64,000 nucleotides of DNA, from NCBI GenBank assembly GCA_963739205.1, contig CAVTZJ010000003.1, forward strand, positions 205,902 through 269,901, given 5' to 3'. How positions within the stretch are numbered: the stretch's first letter is position 1; each line of letters starts with the position of its first letter. The notes under the pieces are model-generated. The model did not search any database. It was not told where the DNA came from and saw nothing but the letters and a program-made list of their open reading frames with translations. The position numbers and the translations under genes were made by a program. This DNA is from an uncultured Pseudomonadota bacterium. Lineage in GTDB: Bacteria; Pseudomonadota; Gammaproteobacteria; Burkholderiales; SG8-39. This document shows, in pieces, positions 27,671-48,252 of the stretch.

Positions 27671-27675
27671 GCGCC

Positions 27676-31076: not shown

Positions 31077-31713
31077 GCACTATCCACGTGATCCTCATCG
31101 GCGCGGGCGGGCATGCGCGGGTACTGCTCGACGCCCGACGTCTTCGGGCGCGGCAATTCTCGGCCTCGTCGACAAAGATCCGGCTCTCGTCGGCCAGAAG
31201 GTTCTGGGATACGAAGTTCTGGGCGACGACGAAGTGGTGCGCAAGCACGCACCGGGCAGCGTAAGGCTGGTCAACGCCATTGGCTCCAATAAGACGATGG
31301 ACAAACGCTGGTCAGTCTATGAAGCCTGGCGGAAGGCCGGCTACACTTTTGCGAGCGTCCAGCATCCAAGCGCGATCGTGTCCCGGCACGCCACGGCGGC
31401 AGCGGGCGTTCAAGTCATGGCGGGCGCGGTGGTGCAGGCCTGCGCGAGCATCGGCGAGAACACGATCGTGAATACCGGCGCCACCGTGGACCACGATTGC
31501 GAGATCGGCGCGCACGTCCATCTGGCGCCCGGCGTCACGCTCTCGGGCAACGTCTGGGTCGGCGATGGCACGCATATCGGCACCGGGGCCGCCGTGATTC
31601 AGGGCAGGCGAATCGGCGCGCGCTGCACCGTCGCCGCCGGCGCGGTAGTGGTGAGCGACGTCGCGGATGGCACGACGGTGATGGGCGTACCGGCGGAGGA
31701 GGTGCGCAAGTGA
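31073..31713 (+). CDS. NeuD/PglD-type hexapeptide acetyltransferase, frameshift near 31136
   Basis: ILIGAGGHARV in one frame; VNAIGS, HPSAIVS, IVNTGATVDHDCEIG and hexapeptide repeats in the next. Confidence 0.88.
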
Positions 31714-33544: not shown

Positions 33545-34735
33545 ATGAAGCGCTGTACAAAGTGTCTTGTGCCAGAGACCGTCGACACCATTTCTTTCGA
33601 CGAAAAGGGTGTCTGTAGCGTATGCCGCCAGGTCGAGATGAAACACGATCGAATCGACTGGATAGAGCGCAGAGGCCAACTCCACGCTCTCATTGACGAG
33701 TTTAGGGGCAAAGGGACGTATGACTGCATCTTGCCGTTTAGCGGCGGGAAGGACAGCACCTTCCAGCTTTGGTATGTCGTGACCCAGTTGGGTTTAAAGC
33801 CCTTGGTCGTGCGCTTCAATCACTGGGGATACCGGCCGTTAGTCGAAGAGAACAACACCAGGACCTTCAAGAAACTCGGCGTCGACGTTGTTGAATTCAC
33901 TCCCAACTGGCACGTGGTTCGCGAACTGATGCTTGAATCGCTTAGGCGCCGCGGCGATTTTTGTTGGCATTGCCATACGGGCATATACGCGGGTGTGATG
34001 CACATGGCGATTCGATTTCAGACTCCGTTGATTATTTGGGGCGAGTCTACGGCGGAGTATCACTCCTGGTACACGTTCGACGAGATGGAGGAAGTGGACG
34101 AGAAGCGCTTTAACCGGATGATGAATCTTGGCATGACGGCAGACGACATGTATGAGTTCTTGCAAGGCCGTGTGGCCAAGCGCGATCTTTGGATGTTTAC
34201 GTATCCGCCGCGCAAGGATTTGGCTCGCATCGGCTGTCGCTCAATCTGTCTCGGCAACTACATCAAATGGGATACAAAGAAGAACGTCGAAGTGATCCAG
34301 CGAGAACTCGAGTGGAAAGGACAGGCGACTGAAGGCGTACCACCAACGTATCCATACGAGAAGATCGAGTGCGCGTTTCAGGGCATGCGCGATTACGCAA
34401 AATTCGTGAAGCGCGGATACGGCCGAACAAACCACTTGGCGAGCATTGACATTAGGCACGACCGCCTGACCCGAGACGCCGGACTAGTGCTTGAGGCGGA
34501 GTACGACGGGAAGCGGCCGGCCTCCATGGAGTGGTTCCTAAAGATACTGGAGATCACCGAGGCTGAGTTCTATCAGATTCTCGAGAAGCACCAAGTGCAT
34601 CCGTGGAAATTCGATCCCAAAGTGGTCGTCACCGGGAAGCCTGTTCCAGACATGGCAAGCTGGGATAGTACGGAGGTAGATCGCTCTGTGGGCCCTCCCA
34701 AGGACAACGAGGGGAAGACCACGAAGTACATATGA
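33545..34735 (+). CDS. N-acetyl sugar amidotransferase, WbuX/PseA/PtmG/WbpG family
   Basis: CTKC..P, CSVC, YDCILPFSGGKDS (PP-loop), IIWGE, KRGYGR, DIRHDRLTRD. Confidence 0.92.
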   Translation: MKRCTKCLVPETVDTISFDEKGVCSVCRQVEMKHDRIDWIERRGQLHALIDEFRGKGTYDCILPFSGGKDSTFQLWYVVTQLGLKPLVVRFNHWGYRPLVEENNTRTFKKLGVDVVEFTPNWHVVRELMLESLRRRGDFCWHCHTGIYAGVMHMAIRFQTPLIIWGESTAEYHSWYTFDEMEEVDEKRFNRMMNLGMTADDMYEFLQGRVAKRDLWMFTYPPRKDLARIGCRSICLGNYIKWDTKKNVEVIQRELEWKGQATEGVPPTYPYEKIECAFQGMRDYAKFVKRGYGRTNHLASIDIRHDRLTRDAGLVLEAEYDGKRPASMEWFLKILEITEAEFYQILEKHQVHPWKFDPKVVVTGKPVPDMASWDSTEVDRSVGPPKDNEGKTTKYI

Positions 34736-35346
34736 TCGCGATTGTCGACTACGGAATGGGAAACATCCGCTCTCTCCATAACGCCCTGCAATTCCTAGGG
34801 TCCGATGTCGAGGTCACATCCAACCCAAGGGACCTACGGCGCGCAGCAAGAATCATTCTTCCTGGTGTGGGTGCATTCGGCGACGCAGTTGACGCGATCC
34901 GGGCGCGCGGACTCGACGAGAGTCTTGATGCTGAAGTCCGGCAACGAGGCAAACCCATGTTGGGCATTTGCCTGGGTATGCAGCTCTTAGCAATGTCGAG
35001 CACCGAACACGGGCTACACGTTGGCCTCGGCTGGTTCAATTCGCGAGTCGAACGCTTCGAGCTTCCCCCCACCTACAAGGTGCCGCATATCGGCTGGAAT
35101 GATATTGAACACCGCATCGACCCTTTGTTTACTGGACTCAGCGGGTCCGAGAAGAACTTCTACTTTGTGCACAGCTACTACATGCATTGCGACAACCCAG
35201 ATGACGTGATCGCGACGTGCGAGTACGGCGTGCGCTTCGCTGCCGCAATTAGATCGGAGAATATCGTCGCCACCCAATTCCACCCGGAGAAGAGCCAGGA
35301 CAACGGCATTCGCCTTCTACGGAACTTCATCGCCTGGAACCCCTAG
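34732..35346 (+). CDS. HisH-like glutaminase subunit (WbuY-type glycan-locus paralogue)
   Basis: DYGMGNI, ILPGVGAF, LGICLGMQ, YFVHSY, QFHPEKSQ. Confidence 0.92.
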   Translation: MIAIVDYGMGNIRSLHNALQFLGSDVEVTSNPRDLRRAARIILPGVGAFGDAVDAIRARGLDESLDAEVRQRGKPMLGICLGMQLLAMSSTEHGLHVGLGWFNSRVERFELPPTYKVPHIGWNDIEHRIDPLFTGLSGSEKNFYFVHSYYMHCDNPDDVIATCEYGVRFAAAIRSENIVATQFHPEKSQDNGIRLLRNFIAWNP

Positions 35347-35347
35347 T

Positions 35348-36124
35348 GTGCTGAAGAAGCGAATTATTCCGAAATTTCTTATAAAGGGCGGACGCCTTGT
35401 AAAGGGCGTGCGATTCCACGAAAACTTCCGTGAGGCGGGCAATCCCGTCTCCACCGCGAAAGTTTACGACGCATATGGTGTCGATGAACTGATCTTTCTC
35501 GATATCGAAGCCAGCGTCGAGAACAGACCAGTTGTCCACGACATCATCGAACGCGTGTCTGAGGAAGTCTTCATGCCCTTCACGGTCGGTGGTGGCGTAC
35601 GAACGCTGGAAGACATCAATCGACTGTTGCGTGCGGGTGCCGACAAGGTCTGCATCAACTCGGCGGCTGTCGAGCGGCCGAATTTGATTCGCGAGGGTGC
35701 AAACCGCTTTGGCGACCAATGCATTACGGTTGCGATCGACTACCGCGAAATCTCCCCCGGCGTGCGCCAGATTTTTTCTCACTGTGGGACCCGCGCCGCA
35801 CCGGTAGACCCACTCGAATGGGCGTTGCGCATGCAGGATGCTCACTGTGGCGAGATCATCATGTGCTCGATTGATCGCGATGGCACATTGTCAGGGTACG
35901 ACCTCGACCTGATAGCTTCCGCAGCCGAACGCTTGGAAGTACCCCTGATTGCCTCTAGTGGCGCCGGTTCCCTGCTCGACTGCCAAGATGCGCTCGAAGC
36001 CGGCGCTTCGGCGGTGACTATAAGCAGCATGTTTCTCTTCACGGACCATAGCCCCATCAAGGTCCGGTCCTACCTAGCGTCAAACGGTGTCAACGTACGC
36101 GCTCAACGCGGCAGCCACAGCTGA
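35348..36124 (+). CDS. HisF-like TIM-barrel subunit (WbuZ/HisF2-type glycan-locus paralogue)
   Basis: KRIIPKFL, LVKG, DELIFLDI, PFTVGGGV, GADKV, SIDRDGT, IASSGAG. Confidence 0.92.
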   Translation: MLKKRIIPKFLIKGGRLVKGVRFHENFREAGNPVSTAKVYDAYGVDELIFLDIEASVENRPVVHDIIERVSEEVFMPFTVGGGVRTLEDINRLLRAGADKVCINSAAVERPNLIREGANRFGDQCITVAIDYREISPGVRQIFSHCGTRAAPVDPLEWALRMQDAHCGEIIMCSIDRDGTLSGYDLDLIASAAERLEVPLIASSGAGSLLDCQDALEAGASAVTISSMFLFTDHSPIKVRSYLASNGVNVRAQRGSHS

Positions 36125-36798
36125 TGAGACGCGTCCGCACAAGTCTTACCGACGCTCAGCTGGCGAACTACGTTGTCCGTCAACTAAACGGCATATTTCC
36201 CGACGAGCGGCCCATCGCGCTAGATGCACTGCACACCGTCCTGCCCACCACGTTGGACCGCATCGAACATTGCTTTACCAAGATCAGCAATAAGTACTTC
36301 TTCGACGGGTCGCAGGCCGTTTTCAGTCACTTGCACGGCGACCAGTATGCGATGTTTCTGTACCTGCTGGCGAACACTGCACATCGTGCAGGGTTGTCGG
36401 ATGAGGTAGCGACGAAGGTTTACTTGCTCAACAAGGCCCTGCACGGAATAGATGCGTTCTACGAGGTGGAACTTCCCTCCATTTTCCTGTTCGTGCACCC
36501 AATTGCTACGGTATTGGGTCGGGGACGGTATTCCGACCATCTTGTTGTCTATCAACGCTGCGGAGTAGGAAGCAACCACGAAATCTATCCAGAATTGGGC
36601 GAGTTCTTGACGATGCATCCGGGAAGCGCCGTGCTCGGAAATTGTCGTATCGGGCGGAACTGCACGATTGCGACGGAGTCGCTCGTCCTGGATCGGGACC
36701 TGCGTGATGACACTGTCTACATCGGCAATCCTAAGAACTTCACGACCCACGAATTGCGAGCTCGGTTTGCTGCGTGGCGCGCGACTCCAAATGCATAG
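36124..36798 (+). CDS. Serine-acetyltransferase-like left-handed beta-helix acyltransferase
   Basis: Helical N-terminal region (HGDQYAMFLYLLAN), then FVHPIATVLG and GSAVLGNCRIGRNCTI hexapeptide repeats. Confidence 0.72.
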   Translation: MRRVRTSLTDAQLANYVVRQLNGIFPDERPIALDALHTVLPTTLDRIEHCFTKISNKYFFDGSQAVFSHLHGDQYAMFLYLLANTAHRAGLSDEVATKVYLLNKALHGIDAFYEVELPSIFLFVHPIATVLGRGRYSDHLVVYQRCGVGSNHEIYPELGEFLTMHPGSAVLGNCRIGRNCTIATESLVLDRDLRDDTVYIGNPKNFTTHELRARFAAWRATPNA

Positions 36799-36800
36799 CC

Positions 36801-38099
36801 ATGACGAAATCTTTTGACGCCCGACTTCAAGCAGTCATACCTGGTGGGGCCCACACATACTCGCGAGGCGCAGACCAGTTCCCGTCCAATGCCCCGCAGA
36901 TCCTGGCGCGCGGCAAAGGCGCCTACGTCTACGACGACCAGGGCCGGCGCTATCTCGATTACGGCATGGCGCTGCGCGCGGTCAACATCGGCTATGCCGA
37001 GGAGGAGATCGACGAGGCCGCGATCCGCGAAATCCGCAACGGCAACAACCTGACCCGGCCGTCGCTGATCGAGTTGCAGGCCGCAGAGCTGTTCACCGGC
37101 CTGATCGATTCGGCCGACATGGTGAAGTTCACCAAGAACGGCTCCACGTCGGTGTCCGCGGCGGTGAAGCTGGCGCGCGCATTCACCGGCCGGGATCTGG
37201 TGGCGCGCTGTGCCGAGCATCCGTTCTTCTCCTACGACGACTGGTTCATCGGCTCGACCCCGCTGACCCGGGGAATACCGCGCGCGGTGATCGAGCAAAC
37301 GCTGCAGTTCCGCTTCAACGACGCCGCATCGCTGCGTGCGCTGTTCGACCGGCACCCGGGCCAGATCGCCTGTGCAGTGCTCGAGGCGGCGACGAATGCG
37401 CACCCGGATCAGGGCTTCCTCCAGGAGGTGCAGGCGCTTTGCCGGCAGCATGGAGCGGTGCTGATCCTCGACGAGATGATCACGGGATTCCGCTGGCACC
37501 TGAAAGGCGCCCAGCACTACTACGGGTTGCGTCCGGACCTGTGCACCTTCGGCAAGGCCATGGCGAATGGCTTCTCGGTGTCCTGCGTCGCCGGGCGCCG
37601 GGACATCATGGAGCTCGGCGCCATCGAGCCCGCGGGCCGCGAGCGCATGTTCCTGCTGTCGACCACGCACGGGGCGGAAATGGCCGGCATGGGCGCGTTC
37701 GTCGCCACGGTCAAGTTCCTCCAGCGCGAGCCCGTCGTCGAGCATCTCTGGCGCTACGGGCAGCAGCTGATCGACCTGATCAACGGCGCCGCGCGCGAGT
37801 TCGGCGTCGAAGCGAGCCTCAGCGCAGCCGGCGTGCCCTGCTCGCCGCATTACGCGACCCTGGACCGCGCCGGCAACCCGTCGCTGGAGCTGCGCACGCT
37901 GTTCGGGCAGGAGATGGTGCGCCACGGCGTGCTGATGCCATGGATCGCGCTCAGCTACCGGCATGGCCCGGAGGAGCTCGAGCTCACGGGGCGCGCCCTG
38001 CGCGCGACCCTCGAGGTATACAGAAAGGCGCTCGATCAAGGGCCCCAGGCGTTCCTGCTGGGGCCGGCGATCAAGCCCGTGTTCCGGAAATTCAACTGA
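36801..38099 (+). CDS. Class III PLP aminotransferase, glutamate-1-semialdehyde aminomutase-like
   Basis: IPGGAHTYSRG, GKGAYVYD, KFTKNGS, DEMITGFR, TFGKAMANG (PLP Lys), STTHG. Glycan-locus context argues against hemL. Confidence 0.9.
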   Translation: MTKSFDARLQAVIPGGAHTYSRGADQFPSNAPQILARGKGAYVYDDQGRRYLDYGMALRAVNIGYAEEEIDEAAIREIRNGNNLTRPSLIELQAAELFTGLIDSADMVKFTKNGSTSVSAAVKLARAFTGRDLVARCAEHPFFSYDDWFIGSTPLTRGIPRAVIEQTLQFRFNDAASLRALFDRHPGQIACAVLEAATNAHPDQGFLQEVQALCRQHGAVLILDEMITGFRWHLKGAQHYYGLRPDLCTFGKAMANGFSVSCVAGRRDIMELGAIEPAGRERMFLLSTTHGAEMAGMGAFVATVKFLQREPVVEHLWRYGQQLIDLINGAAREFGVEASLSAAGVPCSPHYATLDRAGNPSLELRTLFGQEMVRHGVLMPWIALSYRHGPEELELTGRALRATLEVYRKALDQGPQAFLLGPAIKPVFRKFN

Positions 38100-38869
38100 T
38101 GCTGCGCGATAAAGTCGTTGTGATCACCGGCGGTGCCGGTCTGCTCGGGCGCAGTTTCTGCCGCGCCGTGCTGCAAAACGGCGCGAGCTGCCTGGTCGCG
38201 GACCTGGACGAAGAGCGTGGCACGCGAGCCGCCGCAGACCTCGGCGGCGAGTTCGGCGCGCAGCGCGCCGCCTATTGCCAGGTCGACATCAACGACCCCT
38301 CTTCAGTGGACGCATTGCTCGACACCGCCCGACAGCGCTTCGGCCGCATCGACGCGCTGGTCAACAACGCGTATCCGCGCAACGGCAACTACGGGCGCAA
38401 GTTCGAGGAGGTCACACGCGCGGATTTCTGCGACAACGTATCCCTGCACCTCGGCGGCTACTTTCTCGTGTCACAGAAGTTCATCGCGCGCTTCCGCGCC
38501 CAGGGGCACGGCAACATCGTGAACATGGCCTCGGTGTACGGCTTTCTCGCGCCGCGCTTCGAAATCTATCGCGGCACGACCATGACCATGCCGGTGGAGT
38601 ACGCCGTCATAAAGGCTGGGGTGCTGCAGCTTACGAAGTACTTGGCCCGCTATCTTGCGGGCGAAAACATTCGAGTTAATGCGATCAGTCCAGGTGGGGT
38701 CGCAGATGCGCAACCCGACTCCTTTCTAGCGGGCTATCGCTCGTTCTGCCTAAACAAGGGGATGCTAAGCGAGTGCGACATTTGTGGGGCACTCGTGTTT
38801 CTTCTCTCCGACCAATCACGCTACATGAACGGACAGAACATCGTGGTCGATGATGGGTTCAGCCTCTAG
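38099..38869 (+). CDS. SDR oxidoreductase, PtmA (flagellin modification protein A)-like
   Basis: VITGGAGLLG, LVNNAYPRN, NMASVYG, PVEYAVIKAG (YxxxK), NAISPGG, GQNIVVDDGFSL. Confidence 0.9.
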   Translation: MLRDKVVVITGGAGLLGRSFCRAVLQNGASCLVADLDEERGTRAAADLGGEFGAQRAAYCQVDINDPSSVDALLDTARQRFGRIDALVNNAYPRNGNYGRKFEEVTRADFCDNVSLHLGGYFLVSQKFIARFRAQGHGNIVNMASVYGFLAPRFEIYRGTTMTMPVEYAVIKAGVLQLTKYLARYLAGENIRVNAISPGGVADAQPDSFLAGYRSFCLNKGMLSECDICGALVFLLSDQSRYMNGQNIVVDDGFSL

Positions 38870-38896: not shown

Positions 38897-40189
38897 ATGA
38901 GCTTCCACGTGAAGCGCATCCTGATAATCATGAACAAAGCCAGTCGTGAGGAGCCGATCATGGCTGCGATTCGCGACAGGGTGTTGGCTTTCGATTCCAA
39001 AATTGACGTTCGAATTGTCCGCTTTGAGGACGTGTTTGGCGACCTTGTGCTTGATTTCCGACCGAATGTAATTCTCACGTTTCCGCTCACCAGCATCGGT
39101 ACTGCTGACTTGCTCTATGTCTTCAAGTGGTACTGCGGCGCGGCGGTGGTGTCTTTGCGCGCCGAAGGTGTGGTCAATCCAGACTCACCAAGCAATATTG
39201 CCGACCATGTCGGCTACGACGAGTATGGACCTGAGTTAGTCGATTGGGAGGTGTTCTGGGGTCCAGGAATGGCCAACATCGTGGGTGCGATCCTTGTTGA
39301 GCGGAGAAAGCTTTCGTCCTCGCAAAGATTGCGATACTTCGGATATCCAAGGCTCGAGCGCTACTTCATGCAGAACGAAGAGAAATGTCTGAATGACGTG
39401 ACGCACTTAGTGAGCGAGGCGATACGCGCTTCCGGGAGGGAGCAATCCGTGCTGGTGGCGACGGGCTTTCACTTTGCCAATTACACGCGCGACGAGCTTT
39501 ATGCGGCGAAGGATCTTGACGCAGCCAGTCGGGAAGCAGAGCTGCTCGCGATGATTGAAGCCTCCAAAGTGTTTCGCCAGACCTGGATTGACGGCTTACG
39601 CCGCGCGGCGAACGAGCATCCAGAAGTCCAGTTCATACTGAAGAAGCACCCGAGCGAAAAGACGAACGACTATGCCAGTCTGCAAGGGCTCCCGAATCTC
39701 CTGTATGTGTCCCAGGACGTGGATATTGCAGATCTCATGGAGAGGGCTTCGTTGTTCCTTCACTACGGATCTACCACGCTCGCGGACGCCTACCTTGCGG
39801 GTGTGCCGTCGGTCTACCTGTACTCGGACGACGAGCGGTGCAGGCGGGTGTACAACGATATGGGTTGGCCTTCGACCGAGTCGCGCCGGGTAGTCGACAT
39901 CCCTTTGGTAATCAATGATTTTCTGTCGGGCGGAATTCAGTTTCGGAAGACGCCAGAGGTGTCAGCGCTTCTTGAGTATCACTTCAATATCCAAGAGGGA
40001 AGACCCTACCAACCATCGCGAGAGATTGCAGAACTGCTGCTCATGCCGGGCAAGCCGCAGAAGCCTTCTCCAAGTGACCGATACTTCAGGCGTGCCATAG
40101 CAAGGCACCTGTATCTGCGCGCACGTAGGGCGATTGGCCGGCTGATCAGGCGACTGCTCCGCCGTGCACGAGGTAAATCAGCGCTATGA
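38897..40189 (+). CDS. Hypothetical surface-carbohydrate protein with GT-B-like features; candidate nonulosonate transferase
   Basis: 430 aa, low-GC codon use. RAEG, FWGP, GYPRLE, LKKHP, HYGSTT, AYLAGVP motifs; follows the CMP-nonulosonate pathway genes. Confidence 0.6.
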   Translation: MSFHVKRILIIMNKASREEPIMAAIRDRVLAFDSKIDVRIVRFEDVFGDLVLDFRPNVILTFPLTSIGTADLLYVFKWYCGAAVVSLRAEGVVNPDSPSNIADHVGYDEYGPELVDWEVFWGPGMANIVGAILVERRKLSSSQRLRYFGYPRLERYFMQNEEKCLNDVTHLVSEAIRASGREQSVLVATGFHFANYTRDELYAAKDLDAASREAELLAMIEASKVFRQTWIDGLRRAANEHPEVQFILKKHPSEKTNDYASLQGLPNLLYVSQDVDIADLMERASLFLHYGSTTLADAYLAGVPSVYLYSDDERCRRVYNDMGWPSTESRRVVDIPLVINDFLSGGIQFRKTPEVSALLEYHFNIQEGRPYQPSREIAELLLMPGKPQKPSPSDRYFRRAIARHLYLRARRAIGRLIRRLLRRARGKSAL

Positions 40190-42035
40190 ATTCAAGCTTC
40201 GGACACTCATCGAACACTTCACCAATAGGGCGCGACCTTCCTTGAGATTTCTGATTGCGTATGTAGAACAACACCTGATCATCCGACTAGCGGCAGCAGC
40301 GATTTGCCTAGCTGCACTGGACATGGCGGGTGTGGCGGTGGTGTTCCCTTACCTGTCGGTGCTGACCGTTGAGTCCCCGGATGTTGGCGAGGGTTTGTTG
40401 GCGCGGCTCTATGTATGGACGGGTGCCGCGTCTCGTCAGCAGTTCCTCGTCGCAGTATCTGCGGCCCTGGCGGGATTCTTCCTTCTCAAGTTCGCGATCG
40501 CCTACCTCGCGAACCGCGTCAAATACCGGACCAACGCGCGCATCACCACCGGCCTGTCTGACGACCTGTTCAGGCGCCTGCTGGGCGCCGATTACTCGTT
40601 TCTCGCCAACCACAGCGTGTCCGAGATGACCGGCGTGATCAACGCCGAGACCATCCACGCAACGCTGTGCCTGGATGCGTGGGTCTCGATCGCGACCGAG
40701 GCCCTGTTTCTTCTGTTGATCCTCGCCACCATCACCGCAATCGACGTGCGGCTCGCCGCGCTGCTGGTGGCGGGCTTGGCGGTGCTTACCGCGATCCTCT
40801 ACGTCGGCGTGATCAGGCCGACAACGCGCCTGGGCGCCCAGCAGACGCAGATCCACCTGCGCCAGTACCGCTTCCTCTACAGCGTCGTCAACGCCCTGAA
40901 GGACATCAAGATCCTGGGCCTCGAGCGCGCATCCGAGGCGGAGCACCGCGACCTGAACACGCGCTACGCCGGTGCGATCGCCTCCTTCTACGTCTACCAG
41001 ACGCTGCCGCGCGCCGTTCTCGAGCTCCTGGTGATGGTGGGGCTGGTAGGCGCATCGGTGCTGGTGGTGCTGACCGACCAGGACCTCAAGGCGGCCGTTC
41101 CCGTGATCGGCCTGCTCGCCGTGGCCGCGTGGCGCGTGGTGCCCTCCTACAGCCGGATCATCGGCGCCTACGGCACCTACAAGTACTACAAGCCCTCGCT
41201 CGGCGTGGTGCAGCGCCTGTACGAGGACTTGGGCGGCGCGCAGGTGCGGCAGCGCGCCGCGCCGCTTGCCTTCGAGCATGCGCTGGAAATCCACGACCTG
41301 CATTTCTCCCACGGCGACAAGGCGGTGCTCGCCGGCGTGTCGCTCACGATCGCCAAGGGCCGTGCCATCGGCATCGTCGGCCTTTCCGGCTCCGGCAAGA
41401 CCACGTTCCTCGACGTGCTGGCCGGCTTGCGCCGCCCGCAACGCGGCCGCTTCCTCCTCGATGGCAAGGACTTCGATCCGTTCGAAGCCGATACCTTGCG
41501 CCGGCTGTTCGGCTACGTGCCGCAGAACGTCACGCTCATCGACGACAGCATCGCCTTCAACATCTCCTTCGAGCGCCAGCCGGACCGGGAACGCCTGGAG
41601 CGGGCGATGCGCGTTGCGCGCATCGACGAGTTCATCGCCTCGTTGCCCGAGCGATTCGAGACCCAGGTCGGGGAGAACGGCGTGCGCGTGTCCGGCGGCC
41701 AGAAGCAGCGCATCGGCATTGCGCGCGCCCTGTACCGCGACCCGCAGTTGCTCATCTTCGACGAAGCCACCAGTTCCCTGGACAACGTAACGGAACGCGA
41801 GCTGAGCGCGGAGATCGCGGGCCTGTCGGGAAGCAAGACGCTGATCATCGTCGCTCACCGGCTGAGCACAGTGGAGCGCTGCGACCAGATTCACGTCTTC
41901 GATCAGGGCCGCGTCGTGGGCAGCGGCACACATGCAACGCTGCTGCAATCCTGCCCCGAATACCGCGCCCTGTACCTGGCGCAGGAGCCGGGCACGGCGG
42001 ACGCGGACCAGGCACGCATGGCGAGGGCCTCGTGA
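40186..42035 (+). CDS. ABC transporter (fused TMD+NBD), PglK/WlaB/HepA-like glycan flippase; start probably hit by a 1-nt indel
   Basis: Multiple TM helices, GLSGSGKT, VPQN, SGGQKQRIGIARA, IFDEATSSLD, AHRL. The ATGA-coupled ATG at 40186 is one frame off the body. Confidence 0.9.
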
Positions 42036-42706
42036 TCCGGCGCGTTCTGCATCGCCTGCGGCGTGATTGGCACGCCGCGCGCGAAGCTGCCAACGCACGC
42101 AGGCGAAGCGCGAGGCGGCGCGCGCTCGAGCAGCGCCTCGCGGACAAGGGCATCCGCAAGCTGAATCTCGCCTGCGGCAACCAGAAAGTGCCCGGCTTCT
42201 TCGGCATCGACCTGGTGGACGGCGCGGACCTGCGCCTGGACCTGGCGCACATGGACCTGCCATTCCCCGACGCGAGCCTCGAGGCGGTGGTGTGCATGTC
42301 GGCGATCAATTACTTCACGCGCGCGCGCGCGCAGCAGCTGGTGCGCGAGACGCACCGCGTGCTGCGCGCCGGCGGTGTGTGCCGGATGGGCGTGCAGGAC
42401 ATGAAGTCGCTCGCCGAGCGCTACGTGCGCGGCGACCGGGAGCTCTTCTTTCAGAAACTTGCCGACGGCCGCGACCGCTTCGAGGGCCCGACCCTCGGCG
42501 ACAAGTTCGCGGCATGGTTCTACGGCTATGCCGTCGGCGCACACCGTTGCGAGTACTTCTACGATTTCGAGTCGCTCGCACATCTGTTCCGCGAAGCGGG
42601 CTTCAGCGTCATCGAGCGCAAGGCATTCCGCGAAAGCCGCATCGCGGAGGTCGAGCTGCTCGACAACCGCGCCGACCAGATGTTCTTCCTCGAGGCAATC
42701 AAGTGA
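42032..42706 (+). CDS. Class I SAM-dependent methyltransferase
   Basis: GTGA-coupled start. KLNLACG, LPFPDASLE, THRVLRAGG. Confidence 0.82.
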   Translation: MIRRVLHRLRRDWHAAREAANARRRSARRRALEQRLADKGIRKLNLACGNQKVPGFFGIDLVDGADLRLDLAHMDLPFPDASLEAVVCMSAINYFTRARAQQLVRETHRVLRAGGVCRMGVQDMKSLAERYVRGDRELFFQKLADGRDRFEGPTLGDKFAAWFYGYAVGAHRCEYFYDFESLAHLFREAGFSVIERKAFRESRIAEVELLDNRADQMFFLEAIK

Positions 42707-43923
42707 CCGCCGTGCCTTCCGTGCTGCAACGCGCACGCCGCGGCGCTCGCACCTGGCTGCACGCGGCAAAGAGCCTCGGTCCCGCCCAGATGTCGCTCGG
42801 CTTGCGCTACGCGATGAGCCTGCCGTTTCCTGCTCGCAGCGACCGGGAGCACCTGGAAGCGACCGTGCAATGGCTCTGCGCCGCCCACGACGCGGCCGGC
42901 GGCGACGGCGTGTCGGCCGCCTTCAGCCTGACGAGCGGATGGGACGTCGCCTACCCTGAAACCAGCGGCTACATCCTCGCTACGTTCCTCGCCTGCGGGG
43001 ATTACCTGGAGGATGCGACGCTGCCCGCGCGTGCGCGCCGCATCGGCGACTGGGAAATCGCCATCCAGGCGCCCAACGGCGGCGTGCTGTCGCGCCCGGG
43101 AAAGCCGGAAACGCGGGTGTTCAATACCGGGCAGGTGGTACTCGGCTGGCTCGCCTTGTTCGAGCGCACGCAAGACGCGCGCTATCTCGAGGCGGCGCGG
43201 CGCGCGGGCGACTACCTGCTTGGCCTGCAGGAGGCGGACGGCACCTGGCAGCGCGACACCTATTGCGGCGCGCGCACCTATCACGCACGCACCGACTGGG
43301 GCCTGCTCAGGCTCGCACGGCTGAGCGGCGATACCCGCTACGCCGAAGCGGCCCGACGCAACCTGCGCTGGGTGATGCGACAGCAGCAGGACAACGGCTG
43401 GTTCCGCAATTGCGGCTTCAATCAGGACGATCCGATCACGCACGTCATCGACTACACGCTGATCGGCGTGCTCGAGTGCGCGCTGCTCGAGCCCGGCGCC
43501 TTCGACCGCGGCCCGGCGGATCTGATTGCGCGCAGCGCGGAGGCGATCTGCGGCATCGTCGCGCAGGCCGGCATCGGCGGCATCGCCGGCATGATTCCAG
43601 CCTCATTCGACTCCAGCTGGCGCAGCCGCGACCGGGACTCGTGCCTGACCGGCAACGCGCAGCTCGCCTATACGCTGCTGCGGCTTCATGGCCTCGCGCC
43701 CAATCCGGGCTACGTCGCTGCCGCAGATTCGCTGATCGCGGCGCTCAAGGGCACGCAGGCGCTCGGCAGCGCGCCGGCCAGCGTGCGCGGCGCGCTGCCC
43801 GGAAGTTTTCCGATGCACAGCGGCTACCTCGCCAACGGCTACCCGAACTGGGGGGCCAAGTTCTTCGCCGACGCGCTGCTCGCCAGCCTGACGCGCGCGC
43901 GCCCGGTCGCGGTCGCCGCCTGA
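42703..43923 (+). CDS. Hypothetical alpha/alpha-barrel protein with QW-type (prenyltransferase/squalene cyclase-like) repeats
   Basis: QAPNGG, QEADGTW, QQDNGWF repeats; YPETSGY, VFNTGQV, LTGNAQ, YPNWGAKFFAD. Confidence 0.65.
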   Translation: MTAVPSVLQRARRGARTWLHAAKSLGPAQMSLGLRYAMSLPFPARSDREHLEATVQWLCAAHDAAGGDGVSAAFSLTSGWDVAYPETSGYILATFLACGDYLEDATLPARARRIGDWEIAIQAPNGGVLSRPGKPETRVFNTGQVVLGWLALFERTQDARYLEAARRAGDYLLGLQEADGTWQRDTYCGARTYHARTDWGLLRLARLSGDTRYAEAARRNLRWVMRQQQDNGWFRNCGFNQDDPITHVIDYTLIGVLECALLEPGAFDRGPADLIARSAEAICGIVAQAGIGGIAGMIPASFDSSWRSRDRDSCLTGNAQLAYTLLRLHGLAPNPGYVAAADSLIAALKGTQALGSAPASVRGALPGSFPMHSGYLANGYPNWGAKFFADALLASLTRARPVAVAA

Positions 43924-43935
43924 GAGAAAGTCCCC

Positions 43936-44670
43936 ATGGCCCTGCTCTCCTATCCCAAGCGACTCATGCACCGCCTCGGAAACCTCTACGCCAGGGAGAT
44001 CTGCCGGCGCGAATTCCTGGCCCAGGAATTTCTCGGCATCAACGAGCGGCCGGTCGAGTACCGGTTCGTGTTCGAGCAGCTCACCCAGGCCTTCCCGAAG
44101 ACCGTGCTCGACGTCGGCACGGGCAGAACCGCGCTGCCGCAGCTCATGCGCACTTGCGGCTTCCTGGTCACCGCCATCGACAACATCAGGGACTACTGGC
44201 CGAGCGGCATGGTCAATCGCCATTACCACGTCCTCGACGACGACATCCTTGCGCCCAATACCGGCGGGCCGTTCGATTTCATCACCTGCGTGAGCACCCT
44301 CGAGCACATCCGCGATCACGCGCGCGCGATGCGCAACATGCTCTCGCTCCTGAGGCCAGGCGGGCGACTGGTGGTGACGTTCCCCTACAACGAGAAGAGC
44401 TACGTGGAGAACGTCTACGCCTTGCCCGGCTCCATCGGCGCCGACAAGTATCCGTTCGTCACGCAGGTGTTCTCGCGGAACCAGCTCGAGCAATGGACGC
44501 GCGACGGCGGCGCGCAGATCGTCGCGCAGGAGTATTGGCGCTACTTCGACGGCGCGTACTGGACCATCGGGCGGCGCGTCGTGCCGCCGGTGCGGGTCGA
44601 CGCGGGCGACCTGCACCAGATTTCGTGCGTCGCGCTGGTGAAGGGCGCGGCCGCAGTCCGCGCGCCGTGA
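43936..44670 (+). CDS. Class I SAM-dependent methyltransferase
   Basis: NERPVEY, VLDVGTG, ITCVSTLEHI, LLRPGGRLVVTFP. Confidence 0.85.
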   Translation: MALLSYPKRLMHRLGNLYAREICRREFLAQEFLGINERPVEYRFVFEQLTQAFPKTVLDVGTGRTALPQLMRTCGFLVTAIDNIRDYWPSGMVNRHYHVLDDDILAPNTGGPFDFITCVSTLEHIRDHARAMRNMLSLLRPGGRLVVTFPYNEKSYVENVYALPGSIGADKYPFVTQVFSRNQLEQWTRDGGAQIVAQEYWRYFDGAYWTIGRRVVPPVRVDAGDLHQISCVALVKGAAAVRAP

Positions 44671-45875
44671 AGATCCTCTACCTGGCCAACGGCTTGCCGC
44701 ACTACTTCAACCTGGTTCTGAGCAAGCTCAACGCCACCCCGGGCATGGAGGTCGTCGTGGTCGCGCCGCGCGGACCTGGCCGGCACATCGGCGACGGCGT
44801 GTTCCAGTCGCGCGACGGGATCGGCTTTCGCATCATCGAACTGGAGGAATACGCCAATCGGCTGTTCGCGGGCTTCCGCGGCCTGCCCCGCCTGCTGTTG
44901 CGCGAGCGTCCCGACGTCATCGTGTTCCCGGAGTACCTGCTCACGGGATTCTTCCTGCACCCCGGGCTCGCGCTCGCGCGCATGCTCGTCGGCGCAAAGC
45001 TGGTGCAGAAGTCCATCCCGTTCCTGCTCCCGGATTACGAGACAGCGCGCAAACGGCTGCGCGGGCCCTTGCCGCGGCCTGCGACGCCAATCGGCAGGCT
45101 GCTACAAGCGGTCGGCCTGCGCGAGGTGATGCTGCGTGCCGCGCTGGCGCTGCGCGCCTACTGCTATCGCCGGCTGGCCGCGCACGTGAATTACGTCGAC
45201 GCGGCCAGGGAAATCTACGGCAGCTACGGGGTTGCGCCCGACCGGATCTGCGTGACGCGCAATTCGCCCGATACCGACGCAATGCGCCGCACCGAGGCCG
45301 CGCTGCAAAGGGCCGGCGATGCGCCGGTGCGCCTGCCTTTTCGCCTGCTGCACGTAGGGCGCCTGGTCACCGAAAAGCGCGTCAACCTCCTGCTCGAGGC
45401 CATGCCGCTGGTGCGCGCGCGGCTGCCGCAGGCGGAACTGGTGATCGTCGGCGACGGGCCGCAGCGCGCCGCGTACGAGGCGCAGGCCGCGCGGCTGGGC
45501 CTCGCCGGCGCCGTGCGTTTCGTCGGTGCCGTCTACGATCCGCTGGTGCTCGGCCGGCACTTTCTGTCTGCCTCGGTGTTCGTGCTGCCAGGACTCGGCG
45601 GGCTCTCCATCAACGAAGCGATGTTCTACGGCATGGCCATCGTCTGCTCCGCCGGCGACGGCACGGAGAAGTTCCTCGTGCGCGAGGGCTACAATGGCAC
45701 CTTCTTCCGCACCGACGACCGCGACAGCCTCGCCGAGGCGATCCTGAGGCTGATGGCCGATCCGCAGGAACTGCTGCGCATGGGTGCCCGCTCCCGCGGC
45801 ATCATCGAGCGCGAAGTCAACATCCACACCGTGATCGACGCCTACCGCAAGGCGTTCTCCCGCGCATGCGCCTAG
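44667..45875 (+). CDS. GT4 glycosyltransferase
   Basis: HVGRLVTEKRV, VGDGP, PGLGGLSINEAM, DGTEKFLV. Confidence 0.88.
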   Translation: MKILYLANGLPHYFNLVLSKLNATPGMEVVVVAPRGPGRHIGDGVFQSRDGIGFRIIELEEYANRLFAGFRGLPRLLLRERPDVIVFPEYLLTGFFLHPGLALARMLVGAKLVQKSIPFLLPDYETARKRLRGPLPRPATPIGRLLQAVGLREVMLRAALALRAYCYRRLAAHVNYVDAAREIYGSYGVAPDRICVTRNSPDTDAMRRTEAALQRAGDAPVRLPFRLLHVGRLVTEKRVNLLLEAMPLVRARLPQAELVIVGDGPQRAAYEAQAARLGLAGAVRFVGAVYDPLVLGRHFLSASVFVLPGLGGLSINEAMFYGMAIVCSAGDGTEKFLVREGYNGTFFRTDDRDSLAEAILRLMADPQELLRMGARSRGIIEREVNIHTVIDAYRKAFSRACA

Positions 45876-46996
45876 ACCGCCGGAAAATCCTCATCGTCGT
45901 GGGCACGCGACCAGAGGCGATCAAGATCGCGCCCGTGCTGCGTGCCCTGCGCAGCGCCGGGCACGCGGCGCAAGTGGAAGTCTGCGTCACGCGGCAGCAC
46001 AGCGAGCTGCTCGATCCGGTGCTCGAGCTCTTCGGCGTTCGCCCGGCGTTCGACCTGGCGCTGATGAAACCGAACCAGAGCCTCGCGGCCCTGACCTCCC
46101 GCGCGCTCGTCGCGCTGGACGAGGTGTACGCGTCGTTCGGCCCCGGCGTGGTGGTCGTGCAGGGCGATACCACCACGGCGCTGGCGGCCAGCCTGTCGGC
46201 GTTCTACCGGCGGCTGCCTGTCGCGCACGTCGAGGCCGGGCTCCGCACGGCCGACCTGATGGCGCCCTGGCCCGAGGAGCTGAATCGAAGGTTGACGGGC
46301 GTGATGGCGTCGATTCATTTCGCGCCCACGGAGCGGGCGCGGCAGAACCTCCTGCGCGAAGGCGTGGCGGCGGAGCGCATCCATGTGACCGGCAACACCG
46401 CGGTCGATGCCATCCTCAGCGTCGTGGAACGCCTGCGCGGGGAGGTGGACTTGCGGACGCAGCTGGAGCGCAAGTTTAGCTTTCTCGATCCGCAGCGGCG
46501 TCTGATCCTCGTTACCGGGCATCGCCGCGAGAGCTTCGGCGGCGGCTTCGAGCGCATTTGCGCAGCGCTCGCCGAGCTTTCGCGCAGGGCGGACGTGCAA
46601 ATCGTGTACCCGGTGCACCTTAACCCCAACGTGCGCGGCCCGGTGTTCGGTATCCTAGGCGGCTTGCGCAATGTGCATCTCATCGAGCCGGTGGACTACC
46701 TGGCGTTCGCTTACCTGATGACGCGCAGCCATCTCATCATTTCCGATTCCGGCGGCGTGCAGGAGGAGGCGCCATCGCTGGCCAAGCCGGTGCTGGTCAT
46801 GCGCGATGTCACCGAGCGGCAGGAGGCCGTGGAAGCGGGCGTCGTCAGGCTCGTCGGCACGGACGTCACGCGCATCGTCGGCGGCGCCGAGCGCCTGCTG
46901 GACGACGCCGCCGACTACGCGAACATGGCGCGCGGCATCAATCCGTTCGGCGATGGCCGCGCCGCCGAGCGCATCGCCGGCATCCTCGTCCAATGA
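45866..46996 (+). CDS. wecB: Non-hydrolysing UDP-GlcNAc 2-epimerase
   Basis: GTRPEAIK, QGDTTT, HVEAGLRT, TGHRRESFG, SDSGGVQEEAPSL, NPFGDG. Confidence 0.96.
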   Translation: MRLDRRKILIVVGTRPEAIKIAPVLRALRSAGHAAQVEVCVTRQHSELLDPVLELFGVRPAFDLALMKPNQSLAALTSRALVALDEVYASFGPGVVVVQGDTTTALAASLSAFYRRLPVAHVEAGLRTADLMAPWPEELNRRLTGVMASIHFAPTERARQNLLREGVAAERIHVTGNTAVDAILSVVERLRGEVDLRTQLERKFSFLDPQRRLILVTGHRRESFGGGFERICAALAELSRRADVQIVYPVHLNPNVRGPVFGILGGLRNVHLIEPVDYLAFAYLMTRSHLIISDSGGVQEEAPSLAKPVLVMRDVTERQEAVEAGVVRLVGTDVTRIVGGAERLLDDAADYANMARGINPFGDGRAAERIAGILVQ

Positions 46997-48252
46997 CTGC
47001 TTCCGATATGCGCATGCGAAAACTGGGCGTGATCGGCCTGGGCTACATCGGCCTGCCGACTGCGGCCTTGTTTGCCTCCCGGGGCTTCGAGGTCGCGGGA
47101 ATCGACGTCGCCGCCAACGTGGTGGACACCGTCAATCGCGGCGGCGTGCATATCGTTGAGCCGGGGCTCGACATCGCCGTCCGTTCCGCCGTCGCTTCCG
47201 GGTCGCTGCGCGCCTCGACGAAGCCCGAGCCCTGCGATGCGTTCATCATCGCGGTGCCGACGCCTTTCCGCGACGGTCACGTGCCGGACCTGCGCTTCAT
47301 CGAGGCGGCGACGCAGTCGCTCGCTCCCGTCTTGCGCGCAGGCAATCTGGTAGTGCTCGAGTCCACTTCGCCCGTGGGAACCACCCGGGACATGGCAATC
47401 GCGCTGCAGCGCCTGCGCCCCGATCTGCGCTTTCCGGCGCCGGGCCAGGCGGCCGAGGACGTTTTCGTGGCCCATTGCCCGGAGCGCGTGCTGCCGGGCA
47501 ACGTGATGCGCGAGCTGATCCAGAACGACCGGGTCGTCGGCGGCCTGAGCGCGCGCAGCACGGAGCGCGCGATCGCCCTCTACCGCAATCTGGTCGAGGG
47601 AGAGTGCGTCGCGACGGACGCCGAGACCGCCGAAATGGTGAAGCTGACCGAGAACGCGTTCCGCGACGTGAACATCGCGTTTGCGAACGAGCTGTCGGTC
47701 ATCTGCGGGCGTCTCGATCTGAACGTCTGGGACGTGATCCGCCTGGCGAATCGGCATCCGCGCGTGAACATCCTGCGGCCGGGACCAGGCGTCGGCGGGC
47801 ATTGCATCGCCGTGGATCCCTGGTTCATCGTGCACTCTGCGCCGCAGGAGACCAGGCTCATCCGCGCCGCGCGTGAAGTCAACGACGCCAAGCCGCAGGT
47901 AGTGCTCGACGAGGTCGCGCGCGCGGCCAAGGCTTTCGCATCGCCGGTGATCGCCTGCCTGGGCCTCGCGTTCAAGCCCGACATCGACGACTTGCGCGGG
48001 AGCCCAGCACTCGCCATCGTCGCGGAACTGGGCCGCGCCGGCCTCGGCCGGTTGCTGGTCGTCGAGCCCCATATCGGCGCGCTGCCGACGCCGCTCGCGC
48101 AGCTCGCCGGCCTCGAGCTGGCAGAGGTGAACCAGGCAGTGTCCAAGGCCGACATCGTGGTCTTCCTGGTCAATCACAGGGCTTTCGCGGCAATTGAGCT
48201 GGAACAACTGAAGGGCAAGTCGGTCGTGAACGCCTGCGGGTGGCGCCGGTGA
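46993..48252 (+). CDS. wecC: UDP-ManNAc dehydrogenase
   Basis: GLGYIGLPTA, LESTSPVG, HCPERVLPG, EMVKLTEN, GVGGHCIAVDPWF, AFKPDIDDLR. Confidence 0.96.
   Translation: MTASDMRMRKLGVIGLGYIGLPTAALFASRGFEVAGIDVAANVVDTVNRGGVHIVEPGLDIAVRSAVASGSLRASTKPEPCDAFIIAVPTPFRDGHVPDLRFIEAATQSLAPVLRAGNLVVLESTSPVGTTRDMAIALQRLRPDLRFPAPGQAAEDVFVAHCPERVLPGNVMRELIQNDRVVGGLSARSTERAIALYRNLVEGECVATDAETAEMVKLTENAFRDVNIAFANELSVICGRLDLNVWDVIRLANRHPRVNILRPGPGVGGHCIAVDPWFIVHSAPQETRLIRAAREVNDAKPQVVLDEVARAAKAFASPVIACLGLAFKPDIDDLRGSPALAIVAELGRAGLGRLLVVEPHIGALPTPLAQLAGLELAEVNQAVSKADIVVFLVNHRAFAAIELEQLKGKSVVNACGWRR

Follow-up and report, generated by a model that had tools for sequence, protein, structure and literature searches.

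A candidate legionaminic acid-type nonulosonate transferase of predicted GT-B fold encoded between a nonulosonate operon and a PglK-like ABC exporter

To our knowledge, dedicated transferases for legionaminic (Leg) and pseudaminic (Pse) acids are barely known and very few in number. At present, chemoenzymatic work borrows promiscuous sialyltransferases instead. The described enzymes closest to the gene product analyzed here come from Tannerella forsythia, in which the Pse5Am7Gra transferase Tanf_01245 and the Leg-derivative transferase TFUB4_00887, both of family NF046086, act on ManNAcA as acceptor, and deletion of either gene strips the O-glycan of its terminal Pse or Leg derivative (PMC5420450). 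A second family, TIGR04396, is uncharacterised and has been seen beside neuABC in Herbaspirillum (PMC6679464). For the GT-B sialyltransferases of GT38 and GT80, mutagenesis and structures have assigned catalysis and CMP-Neu5Ac binding to an E-G and an HP motif, the latter binding CMP-Neu5Ac in both NmB-polyST and PmST1 (PMC2169525). Retaining ulosonic-acid transferases include KpsC (GT107), WbbB (GT99), the Pse transferase KpsS1 (GT118), and KrkA (GT140) (PMC12887879).

Here, we analyzed a gene at positions 38897..40189 of a 64,000-nt stretch of DNA (the window), whose product most likely attaches a legionaminic acid derivative, a sialic-acid-like bacterial sugar, to a surface glycan, as judged from sequence comparisons. 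With a probability of roughly 0.7, we read it as a GT-B transferase that would place a CMP-activated Leg-type nonulosonate (NulO) on a lipid-linked glycan, because family homology, fold, motifs, position next to NulO genes in several phyla, and genome content agree. The first-pass annotation had arrived at a nonulosonate transferase, and we infer the same from the homology to BFO_1060, the GT-B model, the motifs, the synteny with NulO genes, and a genome with one NeuB and one candidate. The genes of the locus are as follows.

28838-29989, + strand: NeuC-like enzyme (TIGR03568, 451 bits, above cut-off)
29982-31076, + strand: NeuB-like enzyme (TIGR03569, 457 bits, above cut-off)
30985-31713, + strand: acetyltransferase (Hexapep)
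about 31800-32762, + strand: PtmE-like CBS-nucleotidyltransferase (CBS and NTP_transferase)
about 32770-33504, + strand: CMP-NulO synthetase (CTP_transf_3)
33545..38869, + strand: NulO-tailoring genes (WbuX amidotransferase, HisH/HisF homologues, acetyltransferase, class-III aminotransferase, PtmA-like SDR)
38897..40189, + strand: candidate nonulosonate (Leg-derivative) transferase gene, ATG start, 430 aa, predicted GT-B (alignment of homologues, AF2, NCBIfam)
40186..42035, + strand: PglK/MsbA-like fused ABC exporter (Pfam ABC_membrane and ABC_tran)
42703-43923, + strand: alpha/alpha-barrel protein (Pfam)
43936-44670, + strand: methyltransferase (Pfam)
about 44701-45875 (start approximate), + strand: GT4 glycosyltransferase (Pfam)
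45866..48252, + strand: WecB-like UDP-GlcNAc 2-epimerase and WecC-like UDP-ManNAc dehydrogenase (Pfam Epimerase_2 and UDPG_MGDP_dh)

The open reading frame proposed previously is real, with the same extent and length; it lies on the + strand and starts with ATG. Its start at 38897 is supported because homologues open with the same conserved first strand, 'RILxVLNKPNRE'; the public gene call (P0002, 409 aa) begins at Met22 and thereby loses this strand. As had been noted when the gene was placed at the end of the pathway, it follows the NeuC-to-PtmA-like gene series on the same strand, beginning 27 nt past the last gene of the NulO operon (the PtmA-like SDR, end 38869). Profile matches to the tailoring genes comprise TIGR03573 (371 bits), GATase, His_biosynth, NF004856 (672 bits), and NF006619 (346 bits). 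The legB-like dehydratase gene heading the operon (region 26650-27700) reads in three frames, as if frameshifted; if these frameshifts are real and not an assembly error, the strain may not make the donor.

Downstream, the TGA of the candidate overlaps the ATG of the ABC exporter as ATGA (40186-40189). The exporter matches the PglK NCBIfam model with E=8e-83, below its cut-off, and neighbours the candidate homologue in six further loci (L001, L003, L005, L006, L010, and L011), while in L004 it is inverted and distant. The order barrel protein, methyltransferase, GT4 is kept in L001, L003, L005, and L006 and inverted in L004, and the whole block from candidate to GT4 recurs in genomes of Geobacteraceae, Gemmatimonadales, and Nitrospira as well as in metagenome contigs. 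WecB/WecC-like genes are present in L001, L002, and L006 and were not seen in L003, L004, and L005; they possibly supply UDP-ManNAcA, and by analogy this could be the acceptor sugar. On the upstream side, NulO genes precede the candidate homologue in all five close-clade loci with visible upstream DNA (L001, L002, L003, L005, and L006), and the candidate directly adjoins the NulO locus, an arrangement also found in L001, L003, L005, and L006. The association extends to the distant members P0067 and P0137, which have NeuB and a CMP-synthetase no more than 10 kb away, and to TIGR04396, where eight of nine loci carry NeuB and/or CMP-NulO synthetase genes within 10 kb.

The whole genome encodes one NeuB and one copy of the candidate gene, and all 16 genomes of the same genus that we compared lack both. 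The earlier statement that no recognisable sialyltransferase or Maf gene is present holds as far as whole-genome profile searches reach: there is no match to PF01973 (Maf), PF05159 (Capsule_synth), or PF07388 (A-2_8-polyST). PF07922 and PF06002 gave no genome match either, but these two negatives are weak because no control genome matched them. Two other routes for a nonulosonate were rejected, namely Maf- or FlmG-type flagellin glycosylation, because the complete genome has neither a flagellin N-domain nor Maf, and a capsule route of the KpsS/KpsC type, because of the missing Capsule_synth match.

Family searches place the candidate near, yet outside, the two named families. No Pfam family matches it even at E<=10, including Glyphos_transf, Epimerase_2 (PF02350), and PF05159, and phmmer against PDB sequences returned nothing useful. 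The label of an unclassified family given by the first-pass annotation holds only in part: Pfam has no match, but two NCBIfam models of relatives match with E-values of about 1e-25 to 1e-27, both below cut-off. NF046086 (BFO_1060 family glycosyltransferase) scores 94.3 bits (E=8.2e-27) over residues 47-348, which cover positions 39-328 of its 365-position profile, against a cut-off of 200 bits, and the candidate is therefore not a member by NCBI's criterion; ten other representatives of its subfamily score 64-117 bits. TIGR04396 (surface carbohydrate biosynthesis protein) scores 87.8 bits (E=8.3e-25), below its cut-off of 125 bits, whereas true members from the same phylum reach 196-410 bits. 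Alignment of 63 subfamily representatives with eight true TIGR04396 members by hhalign gave 99.7% probability (E=9e-26, 359 columns), with coinciding E-G, FWG, GxPR, HPxE, and (S/C)-T columns, and in a tree the eight members form one group that is split from the 63 representatives by a long branch (100/99 support). Since it is homologous to TIGR04396 yet cleanly apart in the tree, the candidate's subfamily of about 234 clusters is, on sequence grounds, a third, unnamed branch beside NF046086 and TIGR04396, and hence not wholly unclassified. These data add comparative evidence for regarding the TIGR04396 and BFO_1060 families as one NulO-linked GT-B superfamily. No named BFO_1060 protein emerged when P0137, which lies nearest to NF046086 among the representatives, was used to search for homologues. 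The subfamily profile matched KpsC chains best among PDB sequences (E=1.4e-3, 87 residues including K-x-HP), and the distant member P0171 has a sub-threshold match to PF05159.

Conserved motifs and other sequence features of the candidate are as follows.

39158..39169, + strand: R88-A89-E90-G91, x-E-G motif at the C-terminal end of strand beta4, N-terminal domain
39242..39262, + strand: D116-x-E-x-F-W-G122 motif, N-terminal domain (conservation, TIGR04396 alignment)
39461..39472, + strand: T189-G-F-H192 loop after the first strand of the C-terminal domain
39641..39658, + strand: K249-K-H251-P252-S-E254, HP motif, proposed CMP-phosphate/leaving-group site
39761..39775, + strand: H289-Y-G-S292-T293 loop at the N-terminus of helix 295-301 (conservation, AF2)
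40076..40186, + strand: C-terminal basic amphipathic helix, residues 394-430 (composition, hydrophobic moment, AF2)

All three motifs that had been picked out from the sequence (A89-E90-G91, K249-K250-H251-P252, and Y290-G291-S292-T293-T294) are present and conserved beyond chance. R88/E90/G91, K249/H251/P252, and Y290-T293 do not vary among 20 close homologues. In the wider set of 63 subfamily representatives with 19-50% identity, this holds for E90, D116, G149, K249, H251, P252, and S292, with G91, W121, G122, F191, E254, H289, Y290, G291, and T293 conserved in at least 90%. The acidic-Gly motif had been likened to the D/E-D/E-G of bacterial sialyltransferases; its E-G part is conserved, but the form is x-E-G with Ala or Thr first (A-E-G in the candidate, T-E-G in the subfamily consensus). 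E90 aligns with the invariant E85 of TIGR04396, and the counterpart of E90-G91 in NmB-polyST, E153/G154, is essential (PMC2169525). By analogy, we propose x-E-G as catalytic base or acceptor site. The D116-G122 motif aligns with 'Vd..f.WG' of TIGR04396, in which W114 is invariant, and the T189-G-F-H192 loop is invariant in the close clade. The HP motif, a putative CMP-phosphate/leaving-group site by the same analogy, lines up in TIGR04396 with the invariant R-P-H-P-x-E and in KpsC with 'vKvHP'. S292/T293, flanked in the AF2 model by strand 286-289 and helix 295-301, would be a phosphate-binding S/T pair as expected from GT-B architecture. The C-terminal helix carries 14 R/K among its 37 residues, contains the peak of the helical hydrophobic moment of the protein, and is modelled as one single helix spanning 395-427; with no TM-like segment in the 430 aa scanned, it probably serves as a peripheral membrane anchor.

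The AF2 model (pLDDT 87.6, pTM 0.84) has two Rossmann-like domains, and all 175 Foldseek matches in the PDB at E<=0.001 are GT-B proteins, among them the polysialyltransferase 5wcn (E=5.6e-8). Thus, the GT-B fold on which the first-pass annotation had made its reading depend is predicted with confidence. The predicted fold does not, however, separate a CMP-NulO transferase from other GT-B chemistries, and the C-terminal domain folded alone matched generic GT1, epimerase, and TagF-like domains.

Accordingly, other GT-B activities have to be weighed. The candidate could serve an ordinary NDP-sugar or another glycan step, with the NulO being moved by a GT4 or GT2 of the locus or by an unrecognised protein such as that encoded at 49824-50897. 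Many GT1 and GT4 NDP-sugar transferases are among its fold matches, several ORFs of the locus have no family assignment, and its own transferase activity is predicted from sequence and modelled fold. On the other hand, the candidate is homologous to the BFO_1060/TIGR04396 superfamily, which is tightly tied to NulO genes, and it has the HP and E-G motifs that CMP-ulosonate enzymes carry. The other glycosyltransferases among the ORFs scanned (17.9-59.9 kb) are of GT2 and GT4 types only, and no GT2 or GT4 enzyme is known to use a CMP-NulO donor. We therefore consider this explanation unlikely.

A TagB/TagF-like phosphotransferase, which would transfer a phospho-alditol or phosphonate from a CDP/CMP donor to a glycan with release of CMP, is less probable still. 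CDD assigns the relatives from Tannerella a domain of the TagB superfamily (PMC5420450), and the Foldseek matches include TarL (8va1) and a capsule polymerase with a TagF-like module (8a0m/8a0c) with E-values of about 1e-7 to 1e-4. Moreover, the distant member P0137 adjoins IspD and Zn-ADH genes and P0150 sits in a PEP-mutase cluster; because some distant members thus adjoin CDP-alditol-like or phosphonate genes, either in place of NulO genes or in addition to them, the superfamily may use several CMP/CDP-activated donors. Against such an activity of the candidate itself speak the lack of a Glyphos_transf or any other Pfam match, the lack of CDP-glycerol, CDP-ribitol, phosphonate, or TagD/TarI/TarJ-like genes among the ORFs scanned from 17.9 to 59.9 kb, and the NulO pathway as constant upstream neighbour in the close clade. 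Least plausible is a sugar-nucleotide 2-epimerase or hydrolase-like enzyme (NeuC/WecB-type GT-B) acting on a precursor: although the best 28 Foldseek PDB matches are UDP-GlcNAc 2-epimerases (E about 1e-9, TM about 0.5), such TM scores are as expected for any GT-B pair, the candidate has no Epimerase_2 sequence match, the locus already has NeuC-type and WecB-type enzymes (377-451 bits on their own models), and its relatives by sequence either carry a transferase annotation or have been shown to be transferases.

For the preferred nonulosonate transferase, we infer donor, acceptor, residue roles, membrane binding, and stereochemistry (inverting versus retaining) within the following scheme. The enzyme would be cytoplasmic and peripherally membrane-bound, and its donor would be the CMP-activated legionaminic-acid-type nonulosonate that the operon immediately upstream produces. 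By analogy with GT-B sialyltransferases, H251-P252, S292/T293, and K249/E254 of the C-terminal domain may keep the CMP phosphate in place and stabilise the leaving group. In the N-terminal domain, E90 from the x-E-G loop, possibly aided by D116, would position or deprotonate the acceptor hydroxyl. Transfer onto a lipid-linked oligosaccharide, possibly to ManNAcA or a residue added by the GT4, would precede flipping of the glycan into the periplasm by the neighbouring PglK-like ABC transporter.

The candidate matters because so few such transferases are known. With the subfamily now defined, its invariant residues offer targets for mutagenesis and its fold is modelled with confidence, and the conserved neighbourhood, with the donor pathway upstream and exporter and acceptor-building genes downstream, yields testable candidates for the installation of Leg derivatives. 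In this genome without flagellin, the candidate would explain how the single NulO pathway is linked to a surface glycan.

Compared with the T. forsythia enzymes, the candidate is homologous over about 300 residues (the NF046086 match), is of similar length (430 aa versus 442-445 aa), and likewise lacks a TM segment. Both have an HP motif; of the D/E-D/E-G motif of the T. forsythia enzymes, the candidate has E-G, with Ala as the first residue instead of D/E. In both cases a CMP-Pse/CMP-Leg locus immediately precedes the gene, an amidino-type NulO modification is shared, as predicted for the candidate, and ManNAcA genes are found in the same locus. T. forsythia belongs to the Bacteroidota, whereas the host of the candidate is a high-GC Gram-negative, where a PglK-like ABC exporter gene is coupled with it, and the T. 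forsythia enzymes are proven genetically, whereas the candidate is known from its sequence and model. Identity to TIGR04396 is about 15%, and its members carry R-P-H-P-x-E and C-T in place of the K-x-H-P-x-E and S-T of the subfamily.

The GT38, GT52, and GT80 (PmST1) sialyltransferases have the GT-B fold, as predicted for the candidate, and probably share with it a CMP-nonulosonate donor, with a Leg derivative expected here instead of Neu5Ac. The spacing between the N-domain acidic-Gly and the C-domain HP motif is 161 residues in the candidate, compared to 125 in NmB-polyST and 170 in PmST1 (PMC2169525). In contrast to these enzymes, the candidate has no detectable sequence-family membership (no Pfam match) and the x-E-G form of the motif. 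The retaining ulosonic-acid transferases use CMP-activated ulosonic acid donors and have a modified GT-B fold, which we count, by analogy, as a likeness to the candidate. For the CMP-Kdo-dependent KpsC, the similarity to the subfamily is marginal (87 residues), and the candidate lacks a Capsule_synth match. In the case of WbbB, ABC export is potentiated by the terminal Kdo cap, which the pairing of the candidate and ABC exporter genes may parallel. The ABC partner of the candidate is of the fused PglK/MsbA type and not Wzm/Wzt.

A wider, speculative proposal that we regard as unlikely goes further: the subfamily and the fused PglK-like exporter would be obligate partners, coupled in translation, in a module of five genes (transferase, ABC exporter, alpha/alpha-barrel protein, methyltransferase, and GT4) that has spread over at least four phyla. 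Terminal capping with the Leg-type nonulosonate would then be the step that permits a short, methylated, lipid-linked glycan to be exported, and the subfamily would found a new CAZy family of legionaminyltransferases. If this were true, the capping would be a functional analogue of the WbbB beta-Kdo cap, with another transferase family and another ABC architecture.

The candidate ORF runs uninterrupted from an ATG at 38897 to 40189 on the + strand in the window translation, encodes 430 aa and shows the codon-position pattern of a coding frame (GC3 0.65 vs GC2 0.41). At E≤1e-3 it matches 48 database proteins, most of which align over ≥90% of its length with 40-57% identity, so that the ORF described in the first-pass annotation is borne out. 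The public gene call, P0002 (409 aa), begins at Met22 (window position 38960 rather than 38897) and thereby loses the first beta-strand and an "NK..RE" motif that are kept in all full-length homologues. Because the homologues share this first strand, conserved as "RILxVLNKPNRE" at their start, we favor the initial start at 38897. The candidate starts 27 nt past the last gene of a nonulosonate (NulO) operon on the same strand, and thus indeed sits at the end of the pathway.

Genes of the locus, in order
26658 onward, +, legB/legC-like pair at the head of the upstream NulO operon, legB-like from 26658 (family searches)
upstream, next, +, NeuC-type hydrolysing epimerase (451 bits, above cut-off)
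upstream, next, +, NeuB-type synthase (457 bits, above cut-off)
upstream, next, +, hexapeptide acetyltransferase
upstream, next, +, PtmE-type CBS-nucleotidyltransferase
upstream, next, +, CMP-NulO synthetase
upstream, next, +, WbuX/HisH/HisF amidino module
upstream, next, +, second acetyltransferase
upstream, next, +, class-III aminotransferase
ends 38869, +, PtmA-like SDR, last gene before the candidate
38897-40189, +, candidate transferase
downstream of the ABC exporter, +, alpha/alpha-barrel protein, methyltransferase and GT4 (module 38897-45875)
downstream of GT4, WecB and WecC (UDP-ManNAcA supply), further methyltransferases

The TGA of the candidate and the ATG of the next gene, a fused PglK/MsbA-like ABC exporter, form an overlapping ATGA (40186-40189). 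This 4-nt overlap is also found in the related loci L001, L006 and L010. Moreover, the transferase gene is followed by those for ABC exporter, barrel, methyltransferase and GT4, in this order, also in L001, L002, L003 (a Geobacteraceae MAG), L005 (a Nitrospira MAG), L006 and L010 as well as on metagenome contigs, and the five genes are present with the downstream ones inverted in L004 (a Gemmatimonadales MAG). In each of the module loci L001-L006 with visible upstream DNA, NulO genes lie immediately 5′ of the transferase gene. The conserved transferase-exporter pairing merits testing.

In the 3.9-Mb genome (100% complete), NeuB and the candidate each occur exactly once, and the other glycosyltransferases among the ORFs scanned at 17.9-59.9 kb are of GT2 and GT4 types only, neither of which is known to use CMP-NulO donors. 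Genome-wide searches gave no match to flagellin N-domain, Maf, Capsule_synth or polysialyltransferase, and none to GT52 or CST-I, the latter two being weak negatives as control genomes gave none either; within this limit, the lack of a recognisable sialyltransferase or Maf gene noted for the operon extends to the whole genome. Flagellin glycosylation is excluded, as the complete genome lacks both a flagellin N-domain and Maf.

The candidate has no Pfam match even at E≤10, and a plain sequence search of the PDB returned nothing significant. It does have two clear, sub-threshold NCBIfam relatives, NF046086 ("BFO_1060 family glycosyltransferase"; E=8.2e-27, 94 bits, below the 200-bit cut-off) and TIGR04396 ("surface carbohydrate biosynthesis protein"; E=8.3e-25, 88 bits, below the 125-bit cut-off), so that the description as an unclassified family holds for Pfam and only in part for NCBIfam. 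All ten sampled members of its subfamily, for which HMMER, run exhaustively over 1.84 billion representatives, found only 234 clusters at E≤1e-3, likewise score below both cut-offs. For comparison, we took from same-phylum genomes eight proteins that are true members of TIGR04396 (196-410 bits). Profile-profile alignment of 63 diverse subfamily representatives with these proteins gave 99.7% probability (E=9e-26, 359 columns), superposing E-G, D..FWG, G-x-P-R, (K/R)-x-H-P-x-E and (S/C)-T. In a maximum-likelihood tree, a long branch (100/99 support) parts the eight from all 63 representatives, and the candidate falls into a small clade with P0012, P0044, P0050, P0051 and P0052. Taken together, the sub-threshold scores, profile homology and clean tree split place the candidate, at the sequence level, in an unnamed third branch beside NF046086 and TIGR04396 within one superfamily. 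Since both curated thresholds are failed, we do not file it in either named family; it would only work like them.

Among solved structures, the CMP-Kdo-dependent transferase KpsC is the best relative at the sequence-profile level (E=1.4e-3, 87 residues, "ivKlHP" of the family aligned with "vKvHP"). Nonulosonate transferases are the only genetically tested members of the superfamily. BFO_1060 is the strain 92A2 orthologue of Tannerella forsythia Tanf_01245 and TFUB4_00887, whose deletion leaves the S-layer O-glycan without its terminal Pse5Am7Gra or Leg derivative, with restoration upon complementation; HP and D/E-D/E-G motifs and a GT-B/TagB-like domain were noted by the authors (PMC5420450). 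Because these enzymes use ManNAcA as acceptor (PMC5420450), ManNAcA is also plausible as the acceptor of the candidate. Fusions of the GT-B domain among P0055, P0056, P0106, P0122 and P0171, to radical-SAM/SPASM and class-I methyltransferase domains (1102-1321 aa), to GT2 and methyltransferase (1012 aa) or to an FkbM methyltransferase (759 aa), would fit a role in glycan assembly.

Among the distant members, P0067 adjoins an ABC gene, with NeuB and CMP-synthetase ≤7 kb away; P0137 (L008) has the same two genes 5-7 kb off; and the P0092 locus holds an ABC exporter, methyltransferase, barrel, epimerase and GT4. Eight of the nine TIGR04396 loci carry NeuB and/or CMP-synthetase homologues within 10 kb. 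Based on these gene neighborhoods, the superfamily as a whole is linked to CMP-activated ulosonic acids. For some branches, the neighbors hint at a different CMP/CDP-activated donor: P0137 is also near an IspD/Zn-ADH pair (CDP-ribitol-like) and LIC12162-family gene(s), and P0150 (L011), next to an ABC gene, sits in a PEP-mutase/cytidylyltransferase/TPP-decarboxylase (phosphonate) cluster. Two same-phylum genomes harbor tandem TIGR04396 pairs beside NeuC, NeuB and CMP-synthetase (L024, G052:C14; L025, G203:C11), which may reflect two transfers of NulO to each glycan, or two linkages in it.

An AlphaFold2 model built with a 20-sequence alignment was confident (pLDDT 87.6, pTM 0.84) and shows two Rossmann-like alpha/beta domains (~7-147 and ~184-331), with a long helix at the C-terminus. 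Foldseek against the PDB returned 175 matches at E≤0.001, GT-B proteins throughout, led by UDP-GlcNAc 2-epimerases (E~1e-9, TM~0.5) and followed by GT1 enzymes, polysialyltransferase 5wcn (E=5.6e-8), capsule polymerase 8a0m and TarL; the C-terminal domain folded alone gave the same generic mix. The proposed GT-B fold is thus the predicted one. These matches are non-discriminating, and the modeled fold by itself does not identify the donor. Together with superfamily homology, motifs, NulO context and genome content, it supports the original transferase interpretation, and our best inference, with a probability of roughly 70%, is that the candidate is a Leg-type nonulosonate transferase from a divergent, unnamed GT-B subfamily akin to the Tannerella Pse/Leg transferases and TIGR04396. 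This makes it useful as a concrete legionaminyltransferase candidate.

NeuB and the candidate are each absent from 16 of 16 same-genus genomes, and GC content drops to 55-58% at 32-36 kb and 38-40 kb vs 68-73% elsewhere in the window, which points to joint acquisition of pathway and transferase. Within the operon, GC3 alternates between 0.65-0.69 (WbuX, HisH, acetyltransferase, candidate) and 0.86-0.87 (aminotransferase, ABC gene); together with the GC drop, these values suggest that modules acquired horizontally form a mosaic here. The legB-like 4,6-dehydratase (26658-~27650) requires three successive frames, A to ~26855, B at ~26863-27135 ("...PYSASKIGG") and C from ~27140 ("ADQMAHCV...RPFNTYGPRQS...") to a stop near 27650, with two apparent +1 shifts within 300 nt, near 26860 and 27135. 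They represent either pseudogenisation or assembly indels; if real, the strain may lack donor synthesis. A convergent minus-strand block (52434-58674) encodes GT2, NAD-epimerase/reductase, GDP-mannose 4,6-dehydratase (513 bits) and an RmlC-type 3,5-epimerase, so that glycan(s) made from this region probably also include 6-deoxyhexoses.

The candidate lacks TM-like segments. With 14 Arg/Lys and the highest amphipathic moment of the protein, its final 37 residues suggest that the C-terminal helix is a peripheral anchor on the cytoplasmic membrane face, where CMP-NulO would meet undecaprenyl-linked acceptors. The three motifs named earlier, A89-E90-G91, K249-K250-H251-P252 and Y290-G291-S292-T293-T294, are not chance tripeptides: R88/E90/G91, K249/H251/P252 and Y290-T293 are invariant in 20 close homologues, and E90, D116, G149, K249, H251, P252 and S292 in the 63 representatives (19-50% identity), where G91, W121, G122, F191, E254, H289, Y290, G291 and T293 are ≥90% conserved. 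In the model, E90-G91 ends strand beta4 of the N-terminal domain, H251-P252 follows a C-terminal-domain strand, and S292, with T293, lies where GT-B enzymes usually bind phosphate, at the N-terminal end of helix 295-301. K249, H251, E254, S292 and T293 of the C-domain would bind CMP and stabilise the leaving group, and E90, perhaps with D116, would act on the acceptor hydroxyl.

Judged by sequence, transfer by the candidate may be either inverting, as in sialyltransferases, or retaining, as in GT99, GT107, GT118 and GT140 (PMC12887879). The Neisseria polysialyltransferase requires E153 and G154 of its D/E-D/E-G motif, and its Km for CMP-Neu5Ac is affected by H278 and P279 of its HP motif; H311 of PmST1 forms a hydrogen bond with the CMP phosphate, and D141 of PmST1 is in contact with acceptor and sialic acid (PMC2169525). 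The spacing between both motifs is comparable, with 161 residues in the candidate, 125 in NmB-polyST and 170 in PmST1. In contrast to the D/E-D/E-G enzymes, the candidate subfamily carries Ala or Thr instead of an acidic residue at the first motif position, so that its motif reads x-E-G; this difference need not matter, since the D140 side chain of PmST1 is directed into the protein core (PMC2169525).
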